This document shows, piece by piece, positions 15,225 through 56,472 of a stretch of DNA of 64,000 nucleotides. Below the pieces are notes generated by a model. It ran no database searches and was not told where the DNA came from. It saw only the letters and a list, made by a program, of their open reading frames with translations. Position numbers and translations under genes: made by a program. Source of the DNA: Escherichia coli (GTDB lineage: Bacteria > Pseudomonadota > Gammaproteobacteria > Enterobacterales > Enterobacteriaceae); the NCBI RefSeq assembly GCF_041886205.1, contig NZ_CP169029.1. One strand, written 5' to 3'. Within the stretch, counting starts at the first letter, position 1. Each line of letters opens with the position of its first letter.

Positions 15225-15286
15225 CTCTTAATTGATATGGCTTTAGTAGCGGTATCAATATCAGCAGTAGAATAAGTTTTCCCGAT

Positions 15287-34090: not shown

Positions 34091-34769
34091 GCTAATGCTC
34101 CTTAATAAAAGCGTAATGGGATGTTAATGGAGATGAAAGCAGTGGATCTCATTGCCATCTGCATTTTCGCATAGCGTATATCGCTGGCTATGACTAATCA
34201 ATTAGTGAAAAATTTTTATTTAATCAGTTTTTGTAGATAAAATATTCCGTAACGGCTCGTTTTTTGTACATTGTGGATTTTTACATGCCGATATGATTTA
34301 TTTTTAATTAAATCAATTAGATATGGGCTTGCCTCTAATTTCACTAATGCAAGTTTGGGGGTGAGGTAACGCTATAAGCGTAGAGAATTCGGTGTATGTA
34401 GTGGCCGGGTCATTTTCAGCATTTTTTATGCCAGACAATGTACATTAACAGCAGAAAGCACCGGTGATGGATGTTTTCTTTTATTCTGTTATATTGCATT
34501 TTTATTCACTTTGGTTTTGTCAGGCTTGCGGAATTAGCGAGCAGAGAGCGCCGTTCTGTTCACCAATAATCTAAATTACTCATCAAAATGGCTAATATAT
34601 AATCTTGAAATTATTCTGAGAGTTTCAGAAAATAACAGCTGAAATAATCTCGCGCAGGACTGGCATACTAATTTTGTGACATATAAGGTACGCCACATCG
34701 ACATCACCAATCAAATACATACTCTTTTTTGTTTTGGTGCTCCAGCTGTTCCAGCACCATGTCCAAATG

Positions 34770-37700
34770 AAGTTCAGAAGCACCTCCACTCTCCTCTTTT
34801 GCCTGGCCACTGTCCGCTCTCAACTCCTCCATCTCACGTTTGTACGCCGAAGAGTTCCAATGTCGTCATCAGAAGTAACTGGAAGAGCAAGAGAGACACA
34901 CACACACACAGCCAACTGCATAAAAATTACGACTGTGAATGTTATAGTTGTTAATTAGCCGCCTTAAAGTTGAGAGCTTGTTGCACACGCCGTAATAATG
35001 AGGTGTTACGGTTGGCCAAATATAAATGTCATCAGTGAGCGTGCCAGCCCCCAGTGTTGTCAGGCCCGGCACCTGGAGAGCAATTTGCTGAGCCTCTGAA
35101 AGGCAGATCTTTGTCACTTCCTATTCAATGACTCAGGCGCGCTGCATGTGGGTCTTGTTGCTCTCGAGCGGTTGTTTATGGCATCTTCATCCAGTTGGTA
35201 TTCACATAAGTTGTTATTGGAAACAGAGCCCTATAAGCAAGTCCCGTCGAAGAAGAAATCCTGCCATTTAATGGTATAACCGAGACAGCACACGTGCTCA
35301 TTAGATTAACTACTGGCACCATTCTGATCTTGCATTAACGGAAGGTTCAGATTTGAATCACCGGGATGATGGGATCCAGTGGTTTTTCAAGGAATTGAAG
35401 TCCCACTTTCAGTTAGCATTTGTGGCATGTTGGCTCAACGTCACGCCACCACGTGGTGTCACCTTGATGCTGGAGACGATGTAATCTTCAGGGAAGATGG
35501 TTTTTTATGCAGAATGAAGTGAAATCGCCTTCAAGTAATGACCGATGAGCAATCATCAAGTGCGACGAAGATCCATTAAATTCTCGCTTGTGGATCAGAA
35601 TTCTGGCATCATGTGAAGTTGTTGAAACCAATGGGTCTCAGGAAGAATACTTGAGGTGGCGAATACCATCATCTACCGGAGCGGCCAAGAATGTGTTGGC
35701 GATCCCGGTCTGGTCCATAGAACTCTTTCCGTTGCACAGGAGCAAGTTGAATGCGAAGGCACCTTATTTGTGCAATGGTGCACCAGCTTTCGTGCTTGTT
35801 GTATGGAGGAGACTACAAGAACCCAACTTGTTAGGCGATTGCTTCAGGAACAGGAGCCACGCTGTGCGCTTTACAGGGCGCTGAGATTGTGAGTTGAGCC
35901 ATCAAAGTCATTTTAAGCGTTAGTTAAAATCAAGAAAACGAAGGAGAGTTAACAGTACCAGTCAGGCACAGTGTAATGAAATAAGTTAGAAGCTGTCAAA
36001 GACCGGCCAGCCGGAATGAGATCAATGCCCAAGTATAGATATTTTTTCAACAAATTAGTTTAGTAGTTCATAAGGGAGTACATGTGTTTCTGAGAATTGT
36101 TATCACCGATTCGTCGTTAGCCGTAAGGGTTTGTCTGTCAATCATCAAAACATTGTTGACTGCTTGATCTCCTTGTTCATTTTAATGTGTTTTGCTGTGT
36201 AGTCTTATTAGTCTGTGCTCATTCCCGTGTGCACCAACGCGTCATTTTTGCCCACATTTTTCGAAGCGATTTGTTAGTCAGAAGCGATGGTTGTTTAATT
36301 TGTTGGAGACAGAGAGTGAGAGAGCTGTATGTGTGTCAAGGTCAGGGACCACAAGGTGCCATCAGGTGAAGAAGGTGGAGGAACATTGGACAAAACCGGT
36401 ATGTCAGGCATGTCGATGAGCAGAAGGCGTTATATTGAAATTGCTGATTGGCAAAAGCGTTACTGGTGACTGACTGCTGAACGATAAGGGGAGCCAGAAA
36501 CCGTTGCTGGCATTTTGCTGCATATCCAGGTCGATGTTCAGGTAATGCCACAATGCCGCTGCTGATGCCAGTTTAAATCCGTCAGTCCTGCATCTTGAAT
36601 GGGGATTTCCAGCAGCAGGCTTCATGGATAACGCCAGTTGCAGAAACAGATAATCTTCAGCGTAAAGGAATTATGACAAAGGCGCAGACGTTGGCGAGCG
36701 TTGGATTTGCTGAAGAGGTGATCAATGGCTATCGCCTGCTGGATGCGGGAATTGTGTCAGGAGCTGCTGGATTATCGACTGACTGCGCGGTGATCTCGTC
36801 AGCATAATCGCCAGTCAGGTTTGGTCGATCCGTTGAACATTTCCAGATGCCGCATAAAACCAGGTCGTCGAGGAGAATTGATGTAACGTTAATGACAGAT
36901 CCAGAATGCTGGATTTGCAGGGAGATGGAGTCATAGCCCGCCACCATTGCCGGATGAAGCCGATGATAGCATCCACTTTACCGCTATCTACTGCGTCAGC
37001 GCCCAGCCTTAAGCCATAATCCTTTGTTAGGTTGTCTCCCATCATCCCCTTAATTGTGCTAGCACACCAATTGTTTACAGGATACATTTGCTTCCATATT
37101 GTGGGTGTCAAAATATAACGAACATAAGTAGTCTTGCCTTCACAGCCACCCTTGTCCTCATCCTTTTAGCTCCACCACCCACTAGGCTGTTCTTAGAGAT
37201 GGAGTTGTTGTGAGAAGAGTTTTCTGTACTGTTAATGCCAAATGCATATAATGCCAGCAACTTATCCAGATTCTTTATCTGTTAAGATTATTGTGCTACA
37301 CATAATTCTTTTGAATGCTAGAGCCATTTTTGAGAAGGTTGAAACTGTTGATGGGTTACTTTCTTATCATTATTGGAGCAGTGGAAGACCATGAACTTGT
37401 TGCATACACAACCGGTTAGTCTTTTCAATGCAGGACAATCCACTGAGAAGATATAATCGTTGATCGCAAGGAGCCAGTGAAATAGACCTCGAATTGTTTG
37501 GCTGACGAATAGGATCCCATTCCATCATCACCAACAGGAGCCAGCAGCTGATGAGATGTTAGCAGAACCAATGGACAAGCCACTGCAATGAGTGAGTTCT
37601 CGTTCTTCTGCTCTGGAACAAACTGGAATTGCTAACTGGAGATGGAGGCCAATCAGGAGAAGGAAAAGTGCCAACAGTGGCCATATGCGGAAGCTGTTAT

Positions 37701-40700
37701 TAAAATTGAAACACCTCTTGAGTGCGGTGTGAAGTAGTCTACCACCACCAAATCTTAGAAGACCTGGTGGAGGAAGAGAAAGCATCTACCTAGTGTCCGA
37801 CGGCGGCGGATTAGTTGATCACCGGGAGGAAGCATCACCCCTACGTGAAGGGAAGAGGAACGCGACGTGAAGAGGGCCGAGTCGAGGCAAAGTCGACGAC
37901 GTAAGCACATCAAGGTCAATGAGTTATTCTACACTGGAATATGTCCGAGTATTTACTTAGTGAAGAACCAATGGCTTGATCTAGGTTGGTTACCCCCGAC
38001 TAACCAATGACTACACAGGAGAAAGAAATATATAAATAAATAATAATGACAAGACCTTAGCGGTGGCGTGGAGGTTTTTGTTGTTCATTGTGATGGACAG
38101 AGTTCTGCTCATAAGAAGTATGGACGTACACTGTGGTTTAGATCAGGATTTAGTCAGGTTTATTGATAACTGTTGAGCATCTAAATGCCTTTAGGTTGCC
38201 TTACTTCAGCAGTTGCTAGCGGTGATTGTCATCACACCAGAAGAACAGAGCCAGCAAAGCCCAGCCAATGCCAGGTCAGCAGAACTCGGTCGAGTCAGGA
38301 GAAACCATGAGCGAGCGAGGTACTAGTTAGCAATGATGGAATGCCTGGACCAGAATGAGGAGATCATAGTGGTGAGTGTGCTTTCAGTGACAAAACCAGA
38401 GCCAAAACCAACAGCAACTAGCTGATGGCAGAGCCAGCTGAATTGCCTTTGCCGAGTGAAAAAATGGATGGGTGAAACACCCATCCTCAGCATCAAAACC
38501 AGAACTGATGTGTTCTGTGACAGGTTGGAAGATTGGCGTGTAGCTGGTGATGCTGCTGAGGAAGACAAAGAGCTGCCACAGCAATGGCAGAGAGGATGGC
38601 TGCTGGCCACTTTCAGTGGCTTGCTAAACCAGGTGGTTGATCACCGGACCCGGAAGTGGTGCACCAGCGAGATGCCCCACATTTCGCGTCGGGTTAGTGG
38701 TTTAATTTGTTATTTTTTTGCGGAGTGGCTGCAGATTGTTAGGTTGATTCCTGTTGATGAGATTCCACTAGGTGGGTGCAAGCTCATCCAGTCTACCTCA
38801 TCTCGTAGCTGTAGAGTGAGGGATTGTTTTACACCAGTGTGGTGAGCACTTGCTTTGCCTCAGCAGAAACATGGTGATGGATTTCCAGAGACTGATGAAT
38901 TGATGTTGTCCAGGATGCTGAGTGGAGGATGTGAGAGCAGGTTGGAGAAGACGGTCAGAGGAAGAAAGAAATTACTTTATTGTGGTGCAGGCATGGCTAG
39001 CTGGCTTAGTCGTCTGCCATCCTCGATCCATGGACATTGTCCAGCGGCAACGTCATTGCTGTTGCATGCCAGAGGACTCGGTTCTTCAGCTTTGTCCAGA
39101 TTGTCGTCTTCCGCAGACACTTGCTGAGACCTCAACATTTCAGCTAGCCACCCAGAATCGGGTTACGCAGGTGCCCCCCCCCCCCCACATCTTGAGCCAT
39201 GAGAGATCCAGATCATTTTTGCTAGTTGTGATCTAGTGGAGGGGGCGGTTGGCCTCCATCGAAGGCGTGAGATCGGGTGCTAGGCCCCATTGAGTTGCTC
39301 GATGAAGTAGTTGTATGCCGGGCGCCTTGACGTCGCACGTACGGACAATGTCGCCTTGCCGTCACAGTGCCCAGAGCCTTGCGTGTTGTGTAGACGCGCC
39401 TCCGGCGAGCTGCTTGATGATGCATGGGACATCTTTGTGGTGTAGGGCGATCGAAGGGTTTGTGAGTGGCTGCACAACCTGCACCACCGATTGTTGCTGC
39501 AGTGGGTAAGGAGTAGTGGTGGAGAAACCTGGAGGTCAGTGATAGACGATTGAAGGCCAGGTGCACCGACCTTGTCAGGGCGATGGTGCAGGGAGGTGGC
39601 GCTGCTATGTGTGGAAGTGATGGTCGGCGTGTGTTGTGGTGGTGTGGTAATTCTTCAGTCTTACTGCTTCATAAAGTTGTTGTTACCAAGAGCTGTTGTT
39701 TGGTTAATCTGCAATCTTTGAATTTCATAGTTGCATCATAGTTTGTAAGCGATACTCGGCCTGAGCAGGTGTAGCCTTCAATTGTCTGCATGGCCAACCA
39801 CTTTGGATCAAGGTGCCGAATCAAGCACGGTCGCCCGAACGAGACGATGGCCTTGAATCGACGGCACCGGGAGTCTTGGTCAGCAAGTTTGGTTAACCGC
39901 TTCACCAACGAAGGAGACCCTCTCCAACCACGCCGCCACCCAGAGTTCATTGTCTTCTCCACGGCGATTTTTAGTTAATCTATGCATATTTATTTTAGTA
40001 GTTTTCACGAGACCGAACCTTCTCCATGTACCAGTGGAGCCTTTCCAACTAAGTTGCTCACCCATTGAAAAAGAACCCATCGTTGGTACCGATGCCACTT
40101 GTACTCGATGCTTTGCCTTATGCCAGCGGCATATTTATGGTGAGAAATAGTGGAAAACCAAGTTTGGCTGCTGGCACGACACGGCTTCAACGTCAAGCCG
40201 AACAAGTGGGGTGAGGCTGAATGTTTCTTCGACACTTGGCGTTGGCGAACGACGAACCTGCTGGCTGAATGTTTATTTGGCTCACTGCAAAAGCAGCTCT
40301 CTCCCAGGCCACCTGGAGCAGCAGGCCTTCACTCTTTGTCACCTCTCCCAAGCTGGATGGTGAGTGATTCAGCTCACCAACTCATGAGGAATTTTTGCAG
40401 CACAAAAGGTGTGACAGCTGCCGCGACCAATAAGCTGCTGCAGAGACGAAAACTTGTGCAGAAATTGAATTCAGATGAGCTTCCATGCTCTGTTGATTGC
40501 ATTAATCAAGTAACTAAGAAGATGTGTTGCCTCCAGTTTGAGCCGAGTAGTTTGATGGTTTTTACTATACTGTTCAGAACTGGTCAACTTGGTTGTAGCT
40601 GTAAAGATGAGTTGAGATGCTGCCTTTACCTTTGCACTCATGCTGGTGCGAGCTGTGACCAGGAGACGACGGAAGGCCGTGGAATTGCCAGCCTCACCAG

Positions 40701-43150
40701 CTCAGCCAGAAGCTGTGTCTGACGCCTGCTCAGGCCACTGTGGGCTGCCAATGCTAGTTGCTTTCAGACATTGCGCCAGGAATCGATGGCATAATGGTGT
40801 TGCTGGCTCCAGAACAATTAGGTGTATCTCTTCCTCCATGTAACTGTTGCAGAATGTGTTTGCCCTCCAGGAAGACGCTACCCAGACCAGAAGGAAGGGG
40901 TTACTTATTACTCTTGCTTCAGCTGGTACCTGTCCACTTTAGTGTAGACTGATGTCATCAACGAGCAATGAAATGGGTGGCGGAGGCCAGCCAATGAGTG
41001 GGCAAATGCGTTGTGTGTCATAGTGGTTTATCAGCACCATGCACCGAACGTGACCAGCTTGTTGTGGTTTTTGCTATGTTGTGAGGCCGATCACGGCTCA
41101 TCCCCGTCATGCTGTGAAGAAGGACTGTGCTGAAGTTTATTACTTATTTGTCCGAAGGTTATTAATTAGGGTACATGTTCACTTATGTTGTAGACGTGCT
41201 AGGTCGACGAGGACAAAGGAGATGGAGCTGATTGCCAGGCGGACGGTGGAGGAAAACGGACGAGCCCATTGTGATGGCTGGTCACTGTGAGTGAGTGAGG
41301 AAGATTGTGAGGAAAGTGGATGGAGCAGAGAGAGAGAGAGTCCAGTGAGCCCCCAAGACGGTTTGACCTCAACCACTCAGTGGTGCAACTGTTGATCTGC
41401 ACGCACCGAATGAGACAAGACCAGGTGGTTAGGAAATGCTGCACAGAAGTGGTGCGTCAGGATGCATGTTGTGATGCTGCCTCCACCAGTGTGGCCATCA
41501 AACCATGGTGGTGTCAAGTGGTGTTGTAATGGCGCCAGACACGAAAGTGAGGACAAACTGGCTGTTTATTGTTGCAGCACCGCACTCAGCGTGAGCATTA
41601 GGCCAGGAAGAGAGCAGTTACGAGTTATCCATGTTGCCTGTGCACCACCACTCGTCCAGCTGACTGCTTCTGCGTCAGACTATGCCCTTGCCGTAACCGT
41701 TGCCATTGCCGCGACGGAGCCAACGCCACGGAGCCAGCGTCTGCACATTTGTTGTCAACTCCATGTCAAGCGACCCCTCGGAACGGTTGTGACATTTATA
41801 TGCGGTGGCAGTTTGCCGCCGTTCCATTTCAGAGTTCAGGTGTGCGGGCGACAGAGCGACTCCTGATGAGTTGGTCATCAGAGCCATGCTCCCAAAAGCC
41901 ATGCTTTGAGCTGTCACGGGGACACAAATCCTAGGATCAGGCCTCGCCCTGTGTCTTCAGCAGGAATGTCATTTTACAGTACAACTGCAGTCCACCTCAC
42001 CAAAAAAAAATCAGACGCCCATCTGTGACTCATGAATGTTTGTAGTGGTTAGGTTAGGAGAGGCAGCCACCTAGATCATGTGCCAACATCCTTGCTAGTA
42101 AGTGGTTATGTGTGAGACCAGAAGAGGTTGTTAATTCAGAGTCAACTGCTGTAAGCGGTACAGGTAGCAGCTTACTGTTTCTATGTGTTCAAAGTGACTC
42201 ACCGACTAGTTGCTCTTTCTTTCAAATTTTTGCCAACTAACTTTATATACAACCACTCACCATCAGATCAATGATGAAATATTTTGCCGACTTGTGCAGG
42301 CACATCCATGCTATGTGTGGTGGAAGAGTGAATTTAGACAGCAGAAGTCATTGGAGGTCAAATAATCCTCCACGGTACCCTTTACCACTTTATTTTCACA
42401 CCCACAAATTGATGTCACCGGACAGGCCGTCCAATCACTAGGCCAACAAGCCGTTGAAATGTTCTGCCAGCAGAAGAAAATGTAAATATGCCGCCATTGC
42501 ATCGAATTTTAGTGACTGAGTGACCACCGCCTCACCCTAGCTTCACCATTCCTACCGCCTACATCTACAACCACTCAATTCATTAAACAGCCCTTCAGGC
42601 TCAGGAAGTCTTGCAGAATGTGTTGTAATTATCTAATACAATTGTCAAAGACTTGGTGACCAAAATGAAGTGATCCATCAGTTGCCCAGGTATGCATTGT
42701 AGTCAAGTGCCCTGTTTGTGATGTTATATATATATCTGATGAATGTAATAGGTTACACAGCAGAGTTGTGAATCACAGGTTGTTTTTTCAGTGGACGATG
42801 CATTCATGTAGCCATTCTTTTTACTAGATGAGGAAGGGAGCCATCATCATTTGAAGCTAATTTAAAACATCCAAAAATGTACCAGCTACAATTGTTTTTC
42901 ATCGAAAATAGAGGAGTTGAACATTTACAGTAGCCAGAATAAAGTGAGAGGAAAAATGAAATGCAGAAAGACAGGTTAGGCCAAGATACGGTCAAAGAAC
43001 TCAATAACTAGAGGAAACGACACACACCCGCCCTGTTTTAGGGTAATAAAACATGAGATGACAAACAACTGTGTGGCTGCTTCCGGAAATAAGATGCAGG
43101 CCCGAGCCAAGCATACAATTAGATATGTCACAAACGCCTCAACTAGTAGA
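34770..43150. other. ~8.4-kb block without credible protein-coding potential and with non-E. coli sequence character (boundaries approximate)
   Basis: Longest ORF in six frames is 190 aa and the translations are Cys/Trp-rich and random-like; (CA)7 near 34896, C15 at 39173-39190, (GA)8 near 41330, A9 near 42003, (TA)6 near 42727; apparent CpG under-representation; occupies the place of stpA...csiD. Confidence 0.6.
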
Positions 43151-43155
43151 TATGA

Positions 43156-45285
43156 TCAATCAGTTGTGGAGAATCTTGAGGAACGAGAAACATGATCACT
43201 CCCTGAATGATTGATCTCTCTGATGTTGCTAGGTGAGAGGCAACCTCTCAACCTTCTTTTATTTATTATAACTAGTCCATCATGAGGAGAGTGATTAATG
43301 TTCACAGAATCCCCACGACTAAAGGCCAGAACGTTTTTAGTTGCAAATACACCCTCAAATGCGCTCCATATTCCTGCTTTATCTATATATAATGCGTGGA
43401 ATTCATTGTAGAGCTGCTGATAGGTAGAGCAACCTTTATTAAGCCACGCCTCACCGCCGACACGCGTCGACCCATCATCATTTTTAATTTCAGTCGTTGA
43501 TTTTAATACTTGGCCATCCCAGTAAACTAAAGGCCTGCTGAACGGGAGAGCGGCCATATATGCCATTGCTAATTGTTCATCTTGTTGATGGTTAAATAGA
43601 AAGTCATTGAAAAGATTGCCATTGTTAGGAAAATCGTGGTTAATGTTAATCAATATCCGTCTTTTTGATGGGATGCTTGAGATTGTTGAACCCGGTTTTG
43701 ATGCAAGGGTTTGGAGATCGCCACCAAATGAAAAAGCTTTTATCGTCTTCATGAGCAATGAAAAATCAATGGCGCTTAAATCATCTCTTTCATAAAGCAG
43801 CGATGACATTTGTTGTTCATCCAACTGACTAGTTACCAGATATTCCATGTAATTCATAACGGCTTTTTCATGATATTTTGGGTTAAATAAGTTAGTATTG
43901 TGTAATCGCTCATTATAATTTTTAAGCGGTGGGGTTATTGATCTTTCTATTTGTTCATGTTTTGAGTGTTTTGCTGCATCGTAACGTAAACCTCGTACGC
44001 CATATTTTCGCATTTCACGAACGTATTGATTTTGCAGCATAATAACCTGGTCACTTTTGGGGGTTGTTTTAGGCATTCCATTTAAACGCTTTTCTTTTAA
44101 TGCATAGAGGTTTTCCCATTCATCCTTAGAAATATTATCTTTACTTGCTTCGAAGTCTTTTGCAGTGAGATGTATATCTTCTGGATGGATTTGTTTACGT
44201 TCTTTTGTTACTGGATCTATAGTAAATGGAATCAAAACCTGACCTTGCCAATAGCCAGGGATACCACTTTCTATATCTTTACTGATCTTCGCTCGTATAT
44301 CAGTAGAGGGATAATCCAGGTCATTTTTACCACTACCCCCGATTCCCATAAAGTTAAAGGTATAATCAGGAATGATATCGATACCAAATTTTTTAGCATC
44401 TTTAACCAATGCGATAAAATCCTGCAAATCTCCCATTGGATTATGGATGGTACAAAGATCTTCGGGTTGATAAGCGTGAAACCAGTAACCTTTTTCTTCT
44501 TCGGGAGTTTCTGGTCCGTCGGCGCGGAAAGTTGTCACTGGAGGGATTTGTATATACCCATAATGGCAACGTGCAAACTCAGACATATTTTCCCTGATTT
44601 GCTGGTAGGTGGCATTAAAAGCATGAAGAATCGCTTCGCCAGGTTTTTTAGGGGTGATGATTTCACATTGTGATTTCTGAACAGCAGTAAGAGATTTACG
44701 CTCAAGTGTTTGCCGTAGATGTTCTGGATTGATTAATATTTTAAATGTTTCTTGCTGTCCGGAAGGTGACGTCACGTTAATATTATATACATCGGCTGCC
44801 AGCTCATAGTCAGGGATGTTAATAGCATATGCAACATATTTATCTTTTGGGGAGGGTTTTTCAGATATAATGTGGGTGAAATATTCAGCAGGACCATACT
44901 GGTGAACCCCCTTGTTATCTTCTCTTTCATTCATTGTATCTCTTTGATAAATCCATGTTTTTCCTTCTCCTATCCTGTCTGGCGCTGTAATGCTACGCTG
45001 TGCAGCTTTATTCAGTTCACGGTAAGTTGTATCTGGAAAAAGGGAAATTTTATAATCGTTTTTTAACAGATCATTAATGATTTTTTCTGCGTGAAAAGTT
45101 GATATAATTTCTCTGTCTTTTAAATCCTGAGGATAAACTCCACAAGCATTAATAATATTTGTTACACAGTTTAGATATTCTAATGTATTTAATTTGGAAT
45201 TTAGATCCCCGTCAGTAATGTTCCATGATAACAATGTGGGGGTGTCGATAGGTAAATTTCTTGGTCCTGGTTTTATAGAAAACAT
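43156..45285 (-). CDS. ygaQ: Alpha-amylase family (GH13-like) protein, probable intact form of ygaQ
   Basis: 709 aa AT-rich ORF; motif GVRGLRYDAAKH resembles GH13 conserved region II (GxRxDAxKH); adjacent to ileY as ygaQ is in E. coli; C-terminal ~40 codons may run into the anomalous block. Confidence 0.5.
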   Translation of the reverse strand: MFSIKPGPRNLPIDTPTLLSWNITDGDLNSKLNTLEYLNCVTNIINACGVYPQDLKDREIISTFHAEKIINDLLKNDYKISLFPDTTYRELNKAAQRSITAPDRIGEGKTWIYQRDTMNEREDNKGVHQYGPAEYFTHIISEKPSPKDKYVAYAINIPDYELAADVYNINVTSPSGQQETFKILINPEHLRQTLERKSLTAVQKSQCEIITPKKPGEAILHAFNATYQQIRENMSEFARCHYGYIQIPPVTTFRADGPETPEEEKGYWFHAYQPEDLCTIHNPMGDLQDFIALVKDAKKFGIDIIPDYTFNFMGIGGSGKNDLDYPSTDIRAKISKDIESGIPGYWQGQVLIPFTIDPVTKERKQIHPEDIHLTAKDFEASKDNISKDEWENLYALKEKRLNGMPKTTPKSDQVIMLQNQYVREMRKYGVRGLRYDAAKHSKHEQIERSITPPLKNYNERLHNTNLFNPKYHEKAVMNYMEYLVTSQLDEQQMSSLLYERDDLSAIDFSLLMKTIKAFSFGGDLQTLASKPGSTISSIPSKRRILININHDFPNNGNLFNDFLFNHQQDEQLAMAYMAALPFSRPLVYWDGQVLKSTTEIKNDDGSTRVGGEAWLNKGCSTYQQLYNEFHALYIDKAGIWSAFEGVFATKNVLAFSRGDSVNINHSPHDGLVIINKRRLRGCLSPSNIREINHSGSDHVSRSSRFSTTD

Positions 45286-45844
45286 AATAACGTTCCTCTA
45301 ATGGTAGAGTAATATGATGTATACGGAAACATAAAAATGTTTAATTGTTATGAAAGTAATTGCAAACAGATGTCCTATTTTTATCCAATATTTATATGGA
45401 AAAGGATAATGCTTAAATCTGTTTTTTTAATTATCGATGTGGTCTGGAGAGGCAACTGTCAAAAATCGCTCATACGAAACTAATTATTAGCAGAATAAGT
45501 TCTATAAAAGAATATATTGCTATATGAAGTTTATTTTTATGGAGTGAAAAGTAACAGATATCATAATGATGCGAAAACTCTTCAGTTAATGTAATAAACT
45601 TATATTATTAGATACAAAATCATTACAAAGTATCATTGAATCAATGATAACTATAGATAGTGTTAATTATTAACATTTGCTTGTTGACTGCGAGTATCGA
45701 CTTTGCGAATGGAGGCGATGTCGGGTTTTATGTCGCATGTATTGACGACCCAAGGTGAATGGGAACGCATAAAAATCTGTTATTTACATCATAAGATCAT
45801 CATGTTTATTGCGTGGTTTATAAGTATTGTTATTGCATACTTAA

Positions 45845-45920
45845 GGCCCTTTAGCTCAGTGGTTAGAGCAGGCGACTCATAATCGCTTGGTCGCTGGTTC
45901 AAGTCCAGCAGGGGCCACCA
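45845..45920 (+). tRNA. ileY: tRNA-Ile2 (anticodon CAU, lysidine-modified type)
   Basis: 76 nt GGCCCTTTAGCTCAGTGGTTAGAGCAGGCGACTCATAATCGCTTGGTCGCTGGTTCAAGTCCAGCAGGGGCCACCA. Confidence 0.85.
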
Positions 45921-46036
45921 AATAAAACAAGGACTTAGACAGGAAGCTGGCTAAGTCCTTTTTGTTTTGTTTCAATCTGGGTGACGTAATGGGTGACGTA
46001 ACTCAACTATAGGTGCCGTAGTCAGGGAGATTTAGC

Positions 46037-46831
46037 ATGAGCTTTAAGGATAAAGTTGAAGAGAAAAAAATGCGCCGTATGGCCCGTCCCCCTGAGTTAA
46101 CGGTAAAGGACTGGATTAGCCTTTATGATCTTCTTCGTTCAGCCAAAGCTCAAGACTCAGAAGCCATGTACGAAGACTTCGCCTCTGTGCTGTTAACTAC
46201 CCTGTCGGTTGAGCATCATCCGGAACTATACCGCCTGGACGGAAACAAACTAAACGCTGTTGCCGATGACCATTTTGCCTGGGACCTACTATCCGCCCCA
46301 ATGAAAGGGAAAATGTCCCCTGAAGAATTGGCGAAGCGCCCGAAGACCCTTTCCCAACTTCTTTGTATCTACGATGAAGATATCAGTAACGACGAGTCAC
46401 TTCGTACACATGGCTTCTTGCGTGACGCTATTGCCCCTATCCTCGATTTCGAGCTTCTGGATAGCATCGAAGATGAGCCTGACTACAAAGAAAAATATTT
46501 CGAGTTGCTAGCAGCGCAAAAGCACTCGACTCCCCCGCCACTAAGAGGGGAAAGTTATGCTATCAAACGAGAAGAGTTGCTGATCACAGCCCTTGCGGTT
46601 ATCTCTCAAAATCAAAGAGACGCTAATAAAAAGGTCGTCCCAACAGTTACTGAACTTCTGAATCAGATAGAAAAACATGCCTCTGCGTTCTGGCCTCACA
46701 GTAAACAACTTCCGATGTCTCGTGAGAATGCTTCTAAAGAGCTAGGCTTCGCCTTACATCTTTTAGAACAACCAAATCAGAATATTGAATTTCTTCGGGA
46801 AGCCAAAAAAGCAAAAAGAAAAAGTGCATAA
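46037..46831 (+). CDS. Hypothetical protein (264 aa), acidic, no recognisable motif
   Basis: ATG with AGGGAG RBS; first gene after the tRNA 3' end, where an integrase is normally found. Confidence 0.55.
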   Translation: MSFKDKVEEKKMRRMARPPELTVKDWISLYDLLRSAKAQDSEAMYEDFASVLLTTLSVEHHPELYRLDGNKLNAVADDHFAWDLLSAPMKGKMSPEELAKRPKTLSQLLCIYDEDISNDESLRTHGFLRDAIAPILDFELLDSIEDEPDYKEKYFELLAAQKHSTPPPLRGESYAIKREELLITALAVISQNQRDANKKVVPTVTELLNQIEKHASAFWPHSKQLPMSRENASKELGFALHLLEQPNQNIEFLREAKKAKRKSA

Positions 46832-46963
46832 AAAGAAATAGTTACAAAAGGTACCCAGTAATCTTCAGGAAGGTACACGAGAAATATACCGTTCAGTTTG
46901 ATTAACTCCGTTCAGTTTCAGCTTTCACCACCAGGAGTTATTCAATTGAAAAATAAACCAACC

Positions 46964-47167
46964 ATGTCTGATAAGGTTGTCGCCCTTCATCAGCCCCAAC
47001 GTCTGATTCGCATTGATACAATGCTTCAGCTCCTCGATTGCAGTCGCACCACCCTCTACCGCTGGGTTAAAGCTGGCATTTTCCCACAGCCGATAATGCA
47101 TGAGGGCCGAACCGTAGGATGGCCAGCCAATACGTATCAATGCTGGCTTGAGCAAAATAACAAGTAA
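46964..47167 (+). CDS. alpA: AlpA-family phage/island transcriptional regulator (MerR-like HTH)
   Basis: IRIDTMLQLLDCSRTTLYRWVKAGIFPQPIMHEGRTVGWPANTYQCWLEQ matches the AlpA pattern; ORF track start 46898 is a TTG-initiated extension, ATG at 46964 more likely. Confidence 0.7.
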   Translation: MSDKVVALHQPQRLIRIDTMLQLLDCSRTTLYRWVKAGIFPQPIMHEGRTVGWPANTYQCWLEQNNK

Positions 47168-47272
47168 TTCTGTTTGTTAAAGGGCTGAAATATTCAGCCC
47201 TTTCTTCATCTGACAATGAAACAAACTGGAACAAAAACGATTATTTTCACCTATTCTGCGACATGCTAAAAC

Positions 47273-48589
47273 ATGAGTAACTCTCTGATTAATCAAGTAA
47301 CAAAGCCCTCACCTGGTCAGGAACTCACCTCGGTATTTAATACTATTACGCCCGATAAGCCTGGCAACCTTGTTGAATATCAGCCAAAGGGAACGTTTGT
47401 TTTCAAAGAAGTGATGTGGTCTGTGCTGCCAGAGAAACGCAACCAGGACACGAAGATCATGAAAAGAATCTTCGGGGCAGTTGACAAGGTATCAGCGATG
47501 TCTCGCTTTCTTGCGGTCAGATATGATTTTCGGCTCCCGACCTACAGTGCGGATAATCGCATAATGGATGATTTCCATAATTTACTTTTCCGCCAGTTAA
47601 GTAAGAACTACCCAAAATCGTTTATCAGCTATCTTTGGGTAAGAGAGCAGGGCTCAGGGGAAGCACAGCATTATCACTATTTGTTGATGCTGGATGGCAA
47701 CTATATCCGTTATCCAAATAAGCTGAATACGATTGTCCGACATTGCTGGGAACAGGTTGCTGGTGGTTCGGTATGGTTCCCGGAAAACGGTTATTACTTT
47801 GTGAGCGAAAATGATCTCAAGACCTATACCGAATTGATGCTGAGAGTTAGCTATCTGGGTAAGCGCCGTACTAAAGAGTCAATTGATAAAGGTATCAAAC
47901 TTTTTGGCTCAGGCATGCGCAAACCGAAACCTGTCGCGCCTTCACGCCAAAAGTCTGCAATAACACCCTGCAAGCCAATCAACCAAAAAGCGGAGACGAA
48001 AACCAACGATCAGGATATGACGTTGAAATCCACCTACTCAGGAATGTTGGACAAATATTTTCTGGGCAAAGCCCGATTACCCGCCGTTCTGCGTAAACGT
48101 TCATCCTATGAACTTTATGACGAAAATAAATGGTGGTGTAATTCACCACGTTGGTCCGGCCATCGTCATAACTACGTGTTAGAGGCTCTGATTACTGGGA
48201 TCAGCCTTTCTGATTACGCACGCAAGTACAAGTTGAATCCAGTACGGGTATATGCAAACTGTCGCCGTGTTGGGGGGCAAAGCCTTAAAATTATTCACTG
48301 GGCATGGCATCGCTATTGCTTCCAGAAAAGCAAATCCACACAGGATGACTACATTAACAATCACCGGCTGAATCATAAAACAGCTAAAAAGCAGTTACGG
48401 CGTAAACCAATGAGCTCTCACTGGAGCCAGCACTTTGATCGATATTATCAAAAGTACTGGCCGAAAGGCTGGACTGTGGCCGACTACTGCCGTGAACACA
48501 ATCTGGTCGCCAGCACTGCCAGACGTTATATAGTCGATTTTCCATTTATAGGCCTGATAGACCCGTTCTTGTTGAAACCATGGTTATAG
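47273..48589 (+). CDS. HUH-motif protein, YagK/YfjJ-like (inovirus Gp2-type replication-initiator-like domain)
   Basis: 438 aa; HUH-like motif AQHYHYLLML; typical neighbour of alpA in CP4-type islands; C-terminal half basic, Trp/His-rich. Confidence 0.5.
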   Translation: MSNSLINQVTKPSPGQELTSVFNTITPDKPGNLVEYQPKGTFVFKEVMWSVLPEKRNQDTKIMKRIFGAVDKVSAMSRFLAVRYDFRLPTYSADNRIMDDFHNLLFRQLSKNYPKSFISYLWVREQGSGEAQHYHYLLMLDGNYIRYPNKLNTIVRHCWEQVAGGSVWFPENGYYFVSENDLKTYTELMLRVSYLGKRRTKESIDKGIKLFGSGMRKPKPVAPSRQKSAITPCKPINQKAETKTNDQDMTLKSTYSGMLDKYFLGKARLPAVLRKRSSYELYDENKWWCNSPRWSGHRHNYVLEALITGISLSDYARKYKLNPVRVYANCRRVGGQSLKIIHWAWHRYCFQKSKSTQDDYINNHRLNHKTAKKQLRRKPMSSHWSQHFDRYYQKYWPKGWTVADYCREHNLVASTARRYIVDFPFIGLIDPFLLKPWL

Positions 48590-49176
48590 AGATGAAAACA
48601 CCATAACAGTGTCACCTGGTATACTTACTGAGCGCGGCGTAACTTAAATATAAACACTTAGCCGCCATCAGTAAGCAGAGCCTTATCAACACTACCAGGG
48701 AATTATTGTGCAGCATGATAGCTGAGGTACCTCTCAATTCTTGACGGACATTAACGCACAGACAACGCTGATTACCTCCTGTAAGCCAATTTATATCTGC
48801 TTGCTGCCACATATCCGCTGGGACTAATCCCCTTTAAACACCTTTTACTTCAAAAAAATGTTTTCCTTCTGATTTATCCCATACGCGAAATAATGAAGAT
48901 TTTATTTTAATTACTAATACTTTCAATGAGATAAGATGCATACATTCTTACACTCATATGATCACTTTTATTTTTCTTTTAATATCAACACGTTATGAAT
49001 TGATCAGCACAAAAGTCACTGCAGGGGGTTAGCTGATTGAACGTTTCAGTTCGTTTCTAATGGCCACATATAGATTCACATCAAGAACTAGTGATCACTG
49101 TAGGGTAACGGTATGCCCAGATCAGCCTGCAGGGTATTCGCTGCGGATGACATGAAAAACAAAGACAGGGGATTGC

Positions 49177-49824
49177 TTACGGGTCAACAAACACACTGAT
49201 GGGGAGGTTAAACCGGCGCGCAAGTGCTCGCTTGTGATCCAGTGTTAATGTGCAATCCCCTTTCAGGATGCGACTCACCAGAGATTTATTACCAATCTCT
49301 TCTTCAAAATCGCTCTGAGTCAGTTTGTGCTGATCCATCAGTACGCGCAGTAAGGCAACACCCGTTGGGACCGCTGCAATACGGCTATTAAATTCAGCAA
49401 ACTCCGGCGCTTCATCTTCATACTGACCGATTTTCGCAACCAGAATATCCACCAGCGGATGGTCCGGCTCGTGTTCAATCAGATACTCGACCAGAGCCAG
49501 TGCATCTTCACTGTGGAAGCGTACGACTGATGTATAGGTAACATTTTGTTCAGTAATATATTTCATGGCTGCCAGTAAGTAGGAAGCTTTGAAAGTCACG
49601 TCCTGATAGTCCTTAGCTAACAAACTCCCATTCTCTTCAAACCGTTCAACAAATGCTGCAACTTCTTTTGGATCGATACGGCTGGTTTTATCTTTTCCGT
49701 TTCGAACAAACAGCTTTTGTTCTTCAGTATATAGCGTAAAAGGTACCTTCCTTGCCCCAGTAGACAGTTCAACTGGTTGGGAAAAAGACTCCAACATTAA
49801 ATGATAGAAATCTTTATAAGTCAT
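49177..49824 (-). CDS. Two-domain protein: unknown N-terminal domain + C-terminal XRE-family HTH
   Basis: 215 aa; C-terminus LTQSDFEEEIGNKSLVSRILKGDCTLTLDHKRALARRFNLPISVF fits HTH_XRE; lies 89 nt downstream of mcrC on the same strand. Confidence 0.6.
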   Translation of the reverse strand: MTYKDFYHLMLESFSQPVELSTGARKVPFTLYTEEQKLFVRNGKDKTSRIDPKEVAAFVERFEENGSLLAKDYQDVTFKASYLLAAMKYITEQNVTYTSVVRFHSEDALALVEYLIEHEPDHPLVDILVAKIGQYEDEAPEFAEFNSRIAAVPTGVALLRVLMDQHKLTQSDFEEEIGNKSLVSRILKGDCTLTLDHKRALARRFNLPISVFVDP

Positions 49825-49913
49825 GATTACTACTCCCTCATCATTTTAGCACTCAAGAAAATACATGATGTGGTTGATTATCCGGTTGATAATTATGAAT
49901 CGTCATCGTCTCA

Positions 49914-51215
49914 TTACGGGGAAAACAGGGGGAAGGACGATTGCCACTCACCTTCCACTAATGCCCCTGATTCAAGCTCGAAGGGCACACACCAGAGCGA
50001 TAAATGTTTATCAAAATGGAACACTGGCAACGGAGTATCAAAAAACTGATGACGTGGATATATCAGCATCATATTCCCCTTCCCTTGCAGATATTTTTGC
50101 CCATAAGCGAACATCTGATACAGATCAGCCTGGTTAATTTCATACTTTCTCAGGCTGTTATCAGCTCGGCTGTCTAACAGCTTCCATTTGGCATCCAGTA
50201 CCATTACCTGCTCACCTGTGATGAGAAAGTCAGGTTTAAGCATGAACCATTGTTGAGGAGCCCTTTCGCCAGCAGGTACATGATCTAACAAATAATGACG
50301 TTTTGCCTGCTCAATAAGCTGATAATCCCTCAGCAAAGATAAAGCCAAACTGCGCCCCACCCAGCATTCATATAATTTTTCCATCGGGAACAACAGCGAG
50401 ATCCCCTGATGCAACCCATGCTGAAAATCTGGATTCAGTTTTTCCAGAATAAGTTGGCACCATGGCTTGATGGCACGATAAGCATAGAGATATTTACCGT
50501 TGCTCCATTGCGCCAGAGGCTGCGTTGTACTGCCACAAATTGGCTCTATACCGTCCAGTTGGTGGCTCAACGTGTTCGCCTGTCGCCAGCTCTGCCCCTC
50601 TTTGGTCATTTTAAGCACCCAATTCAGGGCCGTACGTAACAGACGGTTTTCAACTCGCTGAGGTGAAAACTCCGCATAACGCACATGAAAGCGAGCATCT
50701 CTACCAGGAGGCTGTCTCATTTGTGCCGTGATGTTCAACTGACCACGGATAAAAGCGCTGTGCTCATCCTCAACAAGGTGGTAGTCGAACCGCAACCCTT
50801 TGTGTACCAGTTCGGTAAGATGCCGCAAGAACTCGCTGAAAATCCACTCATGCATCGGCTGGTTGCTCCGCTGCAATGCAGCCTGATTAACTTCTCGGGG
50901 TGTAATCCCCAATGAAGCGCTGAGCATTCGACGTAAAAGCTGACGCAGGGGGATTATCTCAGTTGGCGCTTCAAATGTGGTTTTGGGCAGAATTTCAATT
51001 GACTCGCCATTCGGGGATTGTAGATAACCGACATAGCTTCCCAAACGCAAAAACCGCTTCCCTTCTCGGCTGAGAATTTGAGAGGTACCACTCCACTTTT
51101 GTTGCAATTGCTCAAGCCAGGAAAAGGTTGCCTCAGAGACAATTCCCAAATCCATACTGGCTGTTTGAGAACTATCACAAGTCAGCAGAGCATATTCCCG
51201 GACCTGGATCATCAT
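49914..51215 (-). CDS. mcrC: McrC-family nuclease subunit of a type IV (modification-dependent) restriction system
   Basis: 433 aa; PD-(D/E)xK-like VLDAKWK motif; 4-nt overlap with upstream McrB-like gene. Confidence 0.75.
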   Translation of the reverse strand: MMIQVREYALLTCDSSQTASMDLGIVSEATFSWLEQLQQKWSGTSQILSREGKRFLRLGSYVGYLQSPNGESIEILPKTTFEAPTEIIPLRQLLRRMLSASLGITPREVNQAALQRSNQPMHEWIFSEFLRHLTELVHKGLRFDYHLVEDEHSAFIRGQLNITAQMRQPPGRDARFHVRYAEFSPQRVENRLLRTALNWVLKMTKEGQSWRQANTLSHQLDGIEPICGSTTQPLAQWSNGKYLYAYRAIKPWCQLILEKLNPDFQHGLHQGISLLFPMEKLYECWVGRSLALSLLRDYQLIEQAKRHYLLDHVPAGERAPQQWFMLKPDFLITGEQVMVLDAKWKLLDSRADNSLRKYEINQADLYQMFAYGQKYLQGKGNMMLIYPRHQFFDTPLPVFHFDKHLSLWCVPFELESGALVEGEWQSSFPLFSP

Positions 51216-53194
51216 GTGACAATACCCTGATAAGCTTCTACCGACGCGAAAGCACGTTCATTGATGCGAAAACGCCTGTCAGACAAGCTATCCGCAATAT
51301 CTTTCGGGAATAGTTCAGAGAATGACGGTAATTGTGCTGACTGTTGCAACAGGATAAAACGGTTTTCTTTCGCTTTTACCGAATCATTAAGCACCCAACC
51401 AATGCGCTCATAATCATCAAAGAAATACTCTCTCAGTAATGGAATGATTTTGTTCTGGAAGATGCTGGCCAGACAGGCTTCGCGGTCGGCATTATTTTCT
51501 AATTTTTTTAGTGGCATAAAGTAAGCATGGCCAATCATATGTTCACTATCCAGCAGCGCTTCGATCCGCTGATTAATACGCGTTAACAACGTTTCGACAT
51601 CAACACCGAACGCAGTGACCCCAGCTAACAGCTCCGGTCGTGCGGGCATTTCGGTAAAGCTAAAGCGTCGTCTTAGCGCCAAGTCCATTTGGATGAGTGA
51701 TTTATCCGCAGTATTCATCGTCCCAATGACATAAACATTTTGCGGTACTGAGAATGCTTGCTTTGAATAAGGGAGCATCAGCGACCGCTCATCATCGGCC
51801 CCTTGACGTTTGTCCGGCTCAAGAAGAGTAATAAGCTCACCAAAGATACGTGCTATATTACCGCGGTTGATTTCATCTATTATCAGTACATGTGGTAGAT
51901 CCTGACTATCGGCATTCTCAACAGGAGCCAGCAACTGAGTTAATTTTTCACGATCAATCGTCGTATCCTGCAACTCATATAGGGTCATCTGAGATAGTGA
52001 CTTGATGAAAATTTGCTCTTTAGGAAGGCTTGGGGTGTATGTTCTTAACCATTTAACTGAACGCATTTGATGGTAATACTCACGTTCATCATTGGGTAAA
52101 TAACTATACTCACCTGTAATCTCAGCTATTGCACGGAACTTATGATTTCCATCAGAGACGACGACTAAATCGCCATTCTTAATAATATTTTTAAAGGTAT
52201 TCACGGCAACAGCCATATAATTACTGGTGCCTTCCAATGACTGTTTTTCTGATGCAATCCGAGCTTTGACTGACTCATAGGTAGAGCAGTTACTAAAATC
52301 GATATCTTCTCCCCAACCTAGCAGGACATAATTGTTTGCCAGGCAGTCCTCATACACATCCTCTTCTCCGCCCATGGTATTACCCAGAGACATCTTCCAG
52401 ATCCGCCGACCTTTGAGTGAGATAGATTGTGTTGCACTCCCCTGAACTTTAACCCTGGCATTCAGGCACAGCTGTTTAAAAATACCATCCACAACTTCGT
52501 AGCGAAGCGCGCCCGATTTTTCATCAGTAGTTGCGCGAATCCCTTCGATAAAATCTTCATAGGAGAAGCTCTGATGGAAGGTGGTAAACATAATGCGCTG
52601 CTTTTCTACCAACGCCTTATAGCGTTCATTTACCAACTCCCGTAAGTCATTGCCATGATGTTCGAGCGTAGCCTGTTGGTACCACGTATTATCGGCAATT
52701 TTGACCGCCATTTCGGTGGTACTGTAGGTTTTACCCGTGCCGGGTGGTCCAAAGAGAATTTGGTTTAAGGGATACATTAACGATTGTTCCTTATTTTCGT
52801 TGTCTCTTTTTAGTCTGGGTTGGGTAGTTATAGATGGTTTACCACCCAGCAAAGCCACCAGCGTCTGCAACGCTTCAACGGATTCAACATCAGCCGCGAA
52901 ACCATATTGGGATGTACCGTTATCTTTCGGATAACGGCGGTAGCTGGTGCTTTTTACTTTTTCCCAAAGGCAGTGGATACCCGAAATGCGATCAATTTCC
53001 GCTTTTACGGCAAGGGTTTCAGGTGCAAGAACCAATGGACTCTTTTTAACCACGCCGTCCCGGCTGCGTTTGACATACAGATACTTTCCATTCCCGAGCG
53101 CATGTTCGGATGCATAGCTTGGCTCGAATTTTCCCGCCTCAAGCCGGTAACCCAATTCATTCAACGCCTGGTATATCTCGAAAGAATTCAGCAT
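51212..53194 (-). CDS. mcrB: McrB-family AAA+ GTPase with atypical N-terminal domain and ~190-aa insertion between Walker A and Walker B
   Basis: 660 aa; Walker A GPPGTGKT, McrB-type Walker B LIIDEINRGNIARIFGEL, FHQSFSYEDFIEG; inserted segment RRIWKMSLG...GDLVVVSDGNHKFRAIAEITGEY...RSVKWL. Confidence 0.75.
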   Translation of the reverse strand: MLNSFEIYQALNELGYRLEAGKFEPSYASEHALGNGKYLYVKRSRDGVVKKSPLVLAPETLAVKAEIDRISGIHCLWEKVKSTSYRRYPKDNGTSQYGFAADVESVEALQTLVALLGGKPSITTQPRLKRDNENKEQSLMYPLNQILFGPPGTGKTYSTTEMAVKIADNTWYQQATLEHHGNDLRELVNERYKALVEKQRIMFTTFHQSFSYEDFIEGIRATTDEKSGALRYEVVDGIFKQLCLNARVKVQGSATQSISLKGRRIWKMSLGNTMGGEEDVYEDCLANNYVLLGWGEDIDFSNCSTYESVKARIASEKQSLEGTSNYMAVAVNTFKNIIKNGDLVVVSDGNHKFRAIAEITGEYSYLPNDEREYYHQMRSVKWLRTYTPSLPKEQIFIKSLSQMTLYELQDTTIDREKLTQLLAPVENADSQDLPHVLIIDEINRGNIARIFGELITLLEPDKRQGADDERSLMLPYSKQAFSVPQNVYVIGTMNTADKSLIQMDLALRRRFSFTEMPARPELLAGVTAFGVDVETLLTRINQRIEALLDSEHMIGHAYFMPLKKLENNADREACLASIFQNKIIPLLREYFFDDYERIGWVLNDSVKAKENRFILLQQSAQLPSFSELFPKDIADSLSDRRFRINERAFASVEAYQGIVT

Positions 53195-53223
53195 TTCCTA
53201 CACCACTCCTTGATGAAAAAGCG

Positions 53224-56200: not shown

Positions 56201-56472
56201 CGCGAAAGCATATCAGTAGCGTTGATGTCCGCTTTTTTCAGCTGCGCCACCAGCGCATCGAGGAAATGACGTTCGGTATCGGTAGGGTAAATTTTGGCAA
56301 ACTTCTCCCACTCCTGCGGCTGTGTGGTCTGCACAAAGGTCAGCACATCCTGGGAATACAGCGCACGTTCGCGATCATAGCCGTCAGTTTTGCCACAAAT
56401 CCAGCCTTTTGCTTTCATCTGAGCAATCATTTCGTTCTGGAAGATAAGCTCTTTGGTGCTGTCCATGCTCAT
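53224..56472 (-). CDS. hsdR: Type I restriction enzyme R subunit (HsdR)
   Basis: 1082 aa; helicase motif I SAGSGKS, DEAH-like ADEAHSSQ; 4-nt overlap with hsdS. Confidence 0.9.
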   Translation of the reverse strand: MSMDSTKELIFQNEMIAQMKAKGWICGKTDGYDRERALYSQDVLTFVQTTQPQEWEKFAKIYPTDTERHFLDALVAQLKKADINATDMLSRTYGTLGVLRHGIKSHNARFSLCQFKPEHNLNPETLARYKQNICRIVPELVYSPHASNAAFEDTGIKAKKWRIDLVLFVNGLPIATLELKSEFKQTVQNAITQYKKTRLPKDPGTNKPEPLLTFKRGALVHFAVSQYEVFMATKLEGDKTFFLPFNKGTHDGGAGNDIPEDANDYATSYLWNEVLLPDNLLKILASFVHLQIVEKEDAIGLKYKSESLIFPRYHQWDVVNKLITAATVEGTGNKYLIQHSAGSGKSNSIAWTAHQLSRLYDENGEKQFHSVIVVTDRTVLDDQLQDTIYQFEHQDGVVGRINNKEGDGSKSEKLASALENSQPIIIVTIQTFPFVLKAIENSVSLKQRKYAVIADEAHSSQSGSTARQLKEVLMTEEADDDVEMSSEDILDATVAARKGSNNLNYYAFTATPKAKTLELFGRRPNPQEPASKTNKPEAFHVYSMRQAIEEGFILDVLKNYTNYKVAYKLLQKLDDPDREVDSKKAKIKLNQWVSLHDHNVSQKVKVIVEHFRKHVMHLLAGQAKAMVVTSSRKAAVRYKLAFDKYIAEQKYDKISAMVAFSGEVEFHEDDHNSLALLNQKFTEINMNPGLKGRDMRKAFDTDDYQVMLVANKFQTGFDQPKLCAMYVDKKLGGVECVQTLSRLNRTYPGKAQSGTFVLDFYNEPDEILGAFQPYYQTAELTDVSDPQQVFELFEKLRTSGIFLWNEVEQFCEAFFSKNKSNAAISNICKPAVQRWKQRYTSAIDEYVKAKAIFERTKKTGDVVLITNAENSFKECEKEKSKLDIFKKDLGSFVRFYEFMSQIVDYDDKNLEKLSLFARHLRPLLHEQRIEEDEIDLSNVEMSHYRLSKLHEQHLKLQEDAAEYKITPGNDVGTAKPKDKKEEFLSNILARLNELFVTDNLTDKDMINYAFAVRDKLSENQAVMTQIANNTREQAMLGDFPKAIDDAVMDSNDAQQEMMVQYLSNPELAKGFARVVFDMLKGA

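Follow-up and report, generated by a model that had tools for sequence, protein, structure and literature searches.

An 8.6-kb non-coding block in an Escherichia coli sequence aligns as a corrupted copy of the native stpA-gab-csiD segment and is almost certainly a data artefact

We analysed a stretch of Escherichia coli DNA of 64,000 nucleotides (hereafter the window), in which a block of 8,591 bp (34663-43253) occupies the place of the genes that usually lie between alaE and ygaQ. Judged by direct alignment, this block is a colinear, heavily corrupted and length-compressed copy of the native stpA-ygaP-ygaV-yqaE-kbp-csiR-gabP-gabT-gabD-lhgO-glaH-ygaQ' segment. We consider it almost certain that this is a data artefact, with no biological feature in it. 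The native segment was probably rewritten by a noise process of non-biological, and most likely computational, nature.

Results

Composition and coding capacity of the block

A first-pass annotation had described the block as ORF-free and compositionally odd, and our measurements bear this out, at levels well beyond chance. The longest ORF has 190 aa. The longest stop-free run spans 192 codons, to be compared with 139 ± 21 (maximum 216) in mononucleotide shuffles and with 502 in the native segment. The period-3 signal-to-noise ratio, which was also computed per 2 kb, is 1.4 in the block and between 10 and 24 in the flanks and the native DNA. GC content is lower than in the native segment (0.473 vs 0.525), and so is the observed/expected ratio of CpG, which is 0.59 in the block, 0.96-1.19 in the flanks and 1.27 in the native segment. 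TpA is also rare (0.60), while CA/TG reach about 1.38-1.39. Hence, the comparison of 3-base periodicity and dinucleotides with the flanks, suggested by the annotation as a check, reveals that periodicity was lost and that CpG and TpA were depleted. Some details required revision. The block had been placed at 34770-43150, where it is indeed present, but its exact limits are those given above. The simple repeats exist too, but the reported C15 is a C13, and the (CA)7, (GA)8 and (TA)6 are (AC)7, (AG)7 and (TA)5 (Table 1). A second candidate zone of corruption, at 60370-64000, was rejected, as its codon periodicity is clear and it codes for Drt1a.

Searches for functional elements in the block were negative. 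The eight longest ORFs had no match in an NCBIfam scan. An Rfam scan of the region from 33.5 to 46.5 kb (E ≤ 0.1) gave nothing within the block, the tRNA ileY in the flank being its sole match. We sought LTRs, TIRs and internal repeats as marks of mobile elements and retrieved merely short chance pairs; the comparison of the block with itself by blastn gave no matches.

Table 1. Junctions, gene remnants and simple repeats in the window. Gene remnants were placed by alignment mapping, in two cases together with blastn.
Feature	Position	Strand	Description
Left junction	34662/34663		Perfect E. coli identity stops at 34662, within the alaE-stpA intergenic region
stpA remnant	34759..35128	+	405 nt reduced to 370; 59% of native bases matched
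(AC)7 simple repeat	34896-34909
ygaP and ygaV remnants	35164..35905	-	Alignment mapping
yqaE and kbp remnants	36082..36720	+	kbp is the best-preserved patch; blastn and alignment mapping
csiR and gabP remnants	36721..38643	-	blastn and alignment mapping
gabT and gabD remnants	38847..41141	-	Alignment mapping
C13 homopolymer	39174-39186		Opposite native GCCGCCCAGACCGC in the gabT/gabD remnant part
lhgO and glaH (csiD) remnants	41159..42807	-	Strongest shortening, 22-31% net loss
(AG)7 simple repeat	41327-41340
A9 homopolymer	42002-42010
(TA)5 simple repeat	42725-42734
Chimeric ygaQ ORF, 709 aa	43156..45285	-	Native N-terminal ~676 aa, then corrupted block; native product 750 aa
Right junction	43253/43254		Perfect identity back from 43254, 221 native nt inside the ygaQ 3' end

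Native genes of the locus as the template of the block

Following the BLASTN check proposed by the annotation, we searched the block interior with megablast and blastn in 5,426 complete E. coli genomes, where only the flanks were matched, and compared the block with a plasmid/vector collection, without any match. The best-preserved 800 nt had no database-scale match, and an exact 30-mer from the block was found neither in the GTDB representative genomes nor in the JGI metagenome contigs. Database-scale BLAST is blind to the homology because, in 28 Gb of sequence, the best local match reaches only 54 bits, short of significance. The templating is seen only when the block and the native segment are aligned directly to each other.

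In this comparison, the block is colinear with the 10,164-bp native segment found at the same site, which begins in the alaE-stpA spacer and reaches into the 3' end of ygaQ. The global alignment scored 2596, whereas chunk-shuffled, reversed and reverse-complement controls scored between -214 and -462. When the block was cut in nine pieces of ~950 nt, each piece aligned to its own native partner only: in the nine-by-nine matrix the diagonal scores range from 41 to 142 and the off-diagonal ones from 12 to 19 (z = 16-79). In-register k-mers are enriched 3-10x over the full block, on a diagonal running from 34725 to 42971 whose offset grows from 0 to 1573. The local GC content of the block also follows the native profile (r = 0.62, p = 1e-6; r = 0.08 for the control). 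With blastn, the native segment gave colinear matches, including a patch in kbp with 72.5% identity over 120 nt (E = 1e-8), and tblastx against the native genes gave no protein-level signal above the DNA-level one. The block shows homology to functional genes together with broken frames, as a naturally decayed pseudogene block would.

These results change the interpretation of the locus. The annotation regarded the genes from stpA to csiD as missing, but the block is a corrupted copy of exactly those genes. Similarly, its view of a compositionally foreign or non-bacterial sequence, or of a chimera, is refuted by the colinear homology over the full block; the nucleotide similarity to stpA, gab and csiD that it had itself named as contrary evidence is what the global score and the z values reveal. 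Its other proposal, a scrambled or synthetic sequence and no genuine locus, holds, in the sense of a copy corrupted at the data level. Two simpler forms of scrambling were rejected. A shuffle or permutation of the native segment does not fit a block that differs from it in length and composition and resembles it colinearly, and the negative scores of the controls exclude a reversed or reverse-complemented native sequence.

Both junctions are base-exact

The corruption starts and ends abruptly. Positions 1-34662 of the window align to strain 6EVA without a gap and at 99.974% identity, and the right flank is 99.96-99.993% identical to E. coli, also ungapped. From position 43254 exactly, the window matches the near-clonal strains L007 and L015 with 1 mismatch in 15,336 bp, and both have intact genes at the locus. 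Native genes stand at this site in all four E. coli genomes with inspected annotation (LHM10-1, 6EVA, GDSC2227PM and L007/L015). Identity falls to ~55% at the base right after the junction. Both junctions are base-exact and unrelated to genes, repeats or mobile elements, since one is in an intergenic spacer and the other inside the ygaQ coding sequence. We found no terminal repeats or IS elements there. In an index of 153 billion genes, the chimeric 709-aa ygaQ product had no exact record. Among the strains compared, GDSC2227PM has only the ileY island in common with the window; its ygaQ contains IS1, and additional genes lie on the left. The host itself is of an environmental, wild-type-like lineage that has a natural defence island.

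Independent errors, blind to genes but not to sequence context

Per-base survival is about 0.53-0.60; the global k-mer estimate is q = 0.52-0.54 (k = 8-13), with local values of 0.47-0.64. The error level is ~45% per base. Substitutions affect ~28% of bases, deletions ~20% and insertions ~5%, and every substitution class occurs. The stability of k-mer survival across k = 8-13 and the geometric distribution of match-run lengths indicate that the errors are mutually independent. There is also no sign of filtering by selection, as mismatch rates are similar at the three codon positions (0.31/0.275/0.32), only ~20% of the indels are multiples of 3 and tblastx lacks a protein signal.

The errors depend on sequence context. 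Native CpG became TpG in 173 cases and CpA in 47, and was retained in 124. Changes from C to T exceed those from G to A in genes of the + and - strands alike, so that the strand asymmetry ignores gene orientation. On the + strand, the substituted base varies with its 3' neighbour. Replacements avoid CpG and TpA, favour CA and TG, and generate short simple repeats. When we simulated context-free corruption, we matched the length and the k-mer counts of the block, but CpG stayed at 1.07-1.13 and long simple repeats were absent. Finally, the error regime shifts along the block: insertions decrease by a factor of about 3, and deletions become more frequent in the GC-rich half.

Discussion

Origin of the corruption

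The base-exact, gene-independent boundaries and the independent events blind to codon, frame and orientation are those expected of in-silico corruption. Decoys and simulated decay also share with the block the geometric runs and the occurrence, as far as the collections searched tell, in one sequence only. The rewriting acted between two arbitrary cut points, those of the junctions, and may have proceeded sequentially, 5' to 3' on the - strand, under a eukaryote-like sequence prior. Its source could be simulated decay, generative rewriting or a negative control planted in the window text, and presumably no sequencer read. A simple context-free simulator differs from the block in that it yields no CpG/TpA avoidance, no simple repeats and no regime shift; hence, the generator needs a context-dependent, eukaryote-like prior. 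The regime change would be unexpected from a simple uniform simulator and is an observation against our explanation, as are the deletion bias, the strand-specific errors and the stutter-like repeats, which are also typical of poor nanopore basecalls.

These last traits lead to the second reading, in which a single very poor single-pass long read of the - strand, of nanopore type, was left unpolished to bridge two accurate contigs of a normal genome. We regard this as rather unlikely, even if it accounts for many observations. Like an unpolished R7-era 1D read, the block follows the true sequence colinearly, carries substitutions and deletion-biased indels, has an error spectrum that is strand-specific whatever the gene orientation, shows simple-repeat and homopolymer runs resembling basecaller stutter and gets worse in GC-rich DNA, with an error rate that varies along its length. 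Perfect flanks are what polished contigs would give. However, published nanopore accuracies range from 65 to 88%, with 65-75% for R7-era 1D reads, and the worst R7 average is 67.4%, with 8.3% deletions (PMC5093776). The block, with ~53-60% identity, the survival reported above and ~20% deletions, lies below these R7-era averages (PMC5093776). Its errors are independent and geometric, without bursts, and its homopolymers are lengthened (C13, A9), not compressed. Moreover, a read of this quality could hardly be set to the exact base at both ends by an overlap or alignment step, short reads would easily resolve the replaced region, which is single-copy, and no such assembly was retrieved in public indexes (exact-match look-ups; GTDB representatives and JGI metagenomes).

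The remaining readings place the block in real DNA. It is quite improbable that a scrambled or neutralised locus was synthesised and put in place of the native genes of an engineered strain. Sharp arbitrary end points, a clean replacement between perfect flanks and a block without coding capacity would all fit such a design, but the locus is free of scars, selection markers, recombinase sites and vector sequence, and the right cut, which destroys the 3' end of ygaQ, makes no obvious sense as a design. Simple repeats of 13-14 nt are also unwelcome in DNA synthesis, and the environmental, wild-type-like lineage of the host speaks against engineering.

It is highly improbable that a living E. coli physically carries the block as a hyper-diverged non-coding relic of the stpA-gab-csiD region, shaped by local, sharply bounded, strand-specific hypermutation with indels that also depletes CpG and TpA. 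The same very low credence applies to a natural relic in general, be it a gene block decayed by local hypermutation or one imported from a lineage where the region had decayed. Homology with a total loss of coding is reminiscent of extreme pseudogenisation, and the excess of C to T on one strand recalls single-strand deamination. Yet, about 25% of the positions are indels, and deaminases make none. Targeted deaminase hypermutation of the MutaT7 type was rejected on similar grounds, as it produces transitions only and essentially no indels, while the block has ~20% deletions, ~5% insertions and every class of substitution. E. coli has no CpG methylation, so the CpG depletion has no basis there. 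Homologous recombination cannot give a drop to ~55% identity at the next base, which counts against import. The reductive evolution of Mycobacterium leprae offers a natural parallel, as host-restricted pseudogene decay also leaves recognisable homology, lost frames and a deletion bias. But this decay is genome-wide and slow, and neighbouring DNA diverges too, whereas here ~45% change per base is confined to 8.6 kb between near-identical flanks that differ by 0.007-0.03% from relatives, and the near-clones L007 and L015 lack the decay and keep the genes intact.

Finally, there is a negligible probability that the genes were deleted and replaced by unrelated DNA of eukaryotic or vector origin, or by a chimeric join: eukaryotic contamination would explain the CpG depletion, the CA/TG excess, the microsatellites, the lack of bacterial ORFs and the lack of database matches, but the block is templated by native E. 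coli genes end to end, every ~950-nt piece showing specific homology to its positional counterpart in the native segment (z = 16-79), and its GC content follows the native profile, which is impossible for unrelated DNA.

Implications

If the block arose by rewriting at the data level, there is no gene, RNA or regulatory function to be sought in it. The locus is the ordinary stpA-gab-csiD region made unreadable, and does not contain a new element, an RNA or a foreign insertion. Should the window derive from a deposited assembly, the record has an error of 8.6 kb, with eleven genes lost from the annotation and a false truncated ygaQ. The value of the case is methodological: a foreign-looking composition and the lack of database matches can hide a corrupted copy of the expected sequence, and pairwise alignment to the syntenic segment in a closely related genome exposes at once what database-scale BLAST misses.

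Extent of the block and its homology to the native segment

Comparison with relatives places the exact limits of the block at 34663-43253. The first-pass annotation had found the right zone, but its limits (34770-43150) are superseded by those set by flank identity. The left flank (window 1-34662) aligns to strain 6EVA without a gap at 99.974% identity, the right flank (window 43254-45923) is 99.96% identical to the same strain, and at both junctions identity falls from perfect to about 55% within one base step. In relatives, 10,164 bp separate the two junction points.

The same annotation regarded the block as foreign, and this did not hold. Sequence searches of the block interior gave no match among 5,426 E. 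coli genomes, plasmids, GTDB representatives and JGI metagenomes. There were no Rfam families inside the block, no protein-family matches for its eight longest ORFs, and no terminal or internal repeats. Direct small-word blastn against the native segment (L001, the native copy used as subject) returned weak but colinear matches, the best with 72.5% identity over 120 nt in kbp (E = 1e-8). The global alignment scored 2596, against -214 to -322 for chunk-shuffled controls, -462 for the reversed block and -240 for its reverse complement. Exact 8- to 13-mers show 3- to 10-fold or higher enrichment along the expected diagonal, from 34725 to 42971, and the offset (native minus block) climbs smoothly from 0 to 1573; remnant coordinates inside the block, mapped by alignment, are approximate. 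Each of nine segments of about 950 nt aligns only with its positional native partner (z = 16-79; local scores 41-142 on the diagonal and 12-19 elsewhere). Local GC of the block rises and falls with that of the native segment (r = 0.62, p = 1e-6; order-reversed control r = 0.08). Homology is visible by eye in the alignment, where the C13 run of the block lies opposite native GCCGCCCAGACCGC. Colinear homology, diagonal k-mers and GC tracking thus show that the block is not foreign: it is the native gene block, corrupted and 15% shorter.

Features in the window and in the native interval
Feature	Window coordinates	Strand	Remarks
Native interval between junction points, in relatives			stpA, ygaP, ygaV, yqaE, kbp, csiR, gabP, gabT, gabD, lhgO, glaH and last 221 nt of ygaQ
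tRNA-Arg array	14731-15499		tandem genes beside tRNA-Ser (serV-argVYZQ region); multiple internal megablast self-matches
ygaQ (alpha-amylase family)	43156-45285	-	chimeric, 709 aa
ileY tRNA	45845-45917		left of defence island
Defence island	45845-60175		after ileY: 264-aa hypothetical, AlpA-like regulator, YagK/YfjJ-domain protein, McrC and McrB-like AAA ATPase, type I R-M hsdR/S/M
Drt1a (UG1) defence reverse transcriptase-nitrilase	60356-64000, open at window end	+	at least 1,214 aa; PADLOC Drt1a, 1336 bits

Coding capacity and composition

The ORF-poor zone at 34.7-43.2 kb is real. An ORF search agreed with the first-pass annotation that no ORF there exceeds 190 aa; the longest stretch without a stop spans 192 codons, compared with 139 ± 21 in mononucleotide shuffles and 502 in the native segment. 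The period-3 signal-to-noise is 1.4 in the block and 10-24 in flanking and native DNA. Block GC is 0.473, and the reported CpG depletion was recovered (observed/expected 0.59 vs 0.96-1.19 in the flanks and 1.27 in the native segment), with TpA at 0.60 and CA/TG at 1.38. Simple repeats are also present, at counts slightly below those first given: (AC)7, C13 rather than C15, (AG)7, A9 and (TA)5.

In this lineage the 5' end of ygaQ is intact. In the window, the last 74 codons of the gene give way to 33 nonsense codons that come from the corrupted sequence. The chimeric product, which any gene caller would predict from the window, has no record by exact look-up in a 153-billion-gene index. The gene is matched in 4,085 of 5,426 complete E. 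coli genomes and absent from about a quarter; IS1 interrupts it in several relatives (LHM10-1, GDSC2227PM).

Searching with a protein of the island (window 47273-48586) brought up draft assemblies in which ygaQ, ileY and the island are arranged as here. In two of them, GCA_036252075.1 and GCA_029944795.1, window 43254-58589 aligns without gaps and with a single mismatch over 15,336 bp, and their similarity to the window starts exactly at 43254. Directly upstream, both carry intact gabP-gabT-gabD-lhgO-glaH and a ygaQ of 750 aa.

Character of the changes

Counts of in-register k-mers fall off geometrically and give a per-base survival of 0.52-0.54 (k = 8-13; local estimates 0.47-0.64). Simulated independent corruption of the native sequence (around 28% substitutions, 20% deletions and 5.5% insertions) matches both block length and k-mer counts. 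Match-run lengths are nearly exactly geometric, hence errors are independent and not bursty. The changes were not filtered by selection, because mismatch rates are near uniform across codon positions (0.31/0.275/0.32), only about 20% of indels have a length multiple of three, and tblastx finds no protein-level conservation between the block and the native genes.

The process is context-dependent. Context-free simulations yield CpG of 1.07-1.13, TpA of 0.9-1.0 and CA/TG near 1.0, and most runs lack 13-14-nt simple repeats. The commonest fate of the 608 native CpG is TpG (173; 124 are kept and 47 become CpA), CpG→TpG being 3.7 times the complementary CpG→CpA, and in native TpA, too, it is the 5' base that is lost. 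C→T changes outnumber G→A by roughly two to one in plus- and minus-strand genes alike, so the asymmetry follows the text strand and not transcription. Because the changed base depends on its 3' neighbour on the plus strand, we infer that the process would have run sequentially, 5'→3' on the minus strand, with a CpG- and TpA-averse prior. Net shrinkage is uneven (4-9% over the first 4 kb of template, 22-31% over lhgO-glaH), and insertion density drops about three-fold midway through the block.

Defence island and other observations

The island is 100% identical to that of strain GDSC2227PM over 14.5 kb. In other genomes it adjoins rpoD-mug, a different context, which suggests a mobile island with more than one insertion site. 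The ORF from 60356 is clearly a Drt1a; its DNA has no match among 5,426 complete E. coli genomes, and GDSC2227PM has an IS1 element in its place. We rejected a second corrupted zone here, since clear codon periodicity indicates real coding DNA. The spacing of the tRNA-Arg array differs slightly from 6EVA, which is ordinary copy-spacing variation. GDSC2227PM carries an extra two-gene insert between luxS and emrB (19176-20992 of L005, its locus), encoding an ATP-binding protein and an RNA-ligase-family protein, perhaps a small cassette for defence or repair; neither the window nor 6EVA has this insert.

Origin of the block

The block resembles eukaryotic contamination, but is homologous to the native site, and a decayed pseudogene block, but its divergence is incommensurate with the flanks and not common to relatives. 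E. coli has no CpG methylation. A biological origin is essentially excluded, because per-base change of about 45%, a quarter of it indels, lies between flanks differing by 0.007-0.03% from relatives, because near-clones lack the block, because CpG is depleted in such an organism, and because the junctions could not come from homologous recombination.

Two data-level explanations remain. The block resembles an in-silico decoy, and the native segment would have been rewritten computationally, whether as a planted control, by generative noise or in a simulation of decay; we consider this the likelier of the two. The other, a raw single-pass long read used as an unpolished bridge, would account for the excess of deletions, for errors specific to one strand and for repeats that look like stutter. 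We consider it rather unlikely: the block does resemble an unpolished noisy read, but it has more errors than the range of real reads allows, with identity lower than even the worst published nanopore averages (1D reads 65-75%; R7 67.4% with 8.3% deletions; PMC5093776). Moreover, the errors lack bursts, homopolymer runs have grown longer, and base-exact ends for such a read are beyond any overlap step. That the block physically exists, as a relic of local hypermutation, is scarcely credible. The block is no real genomic feature.
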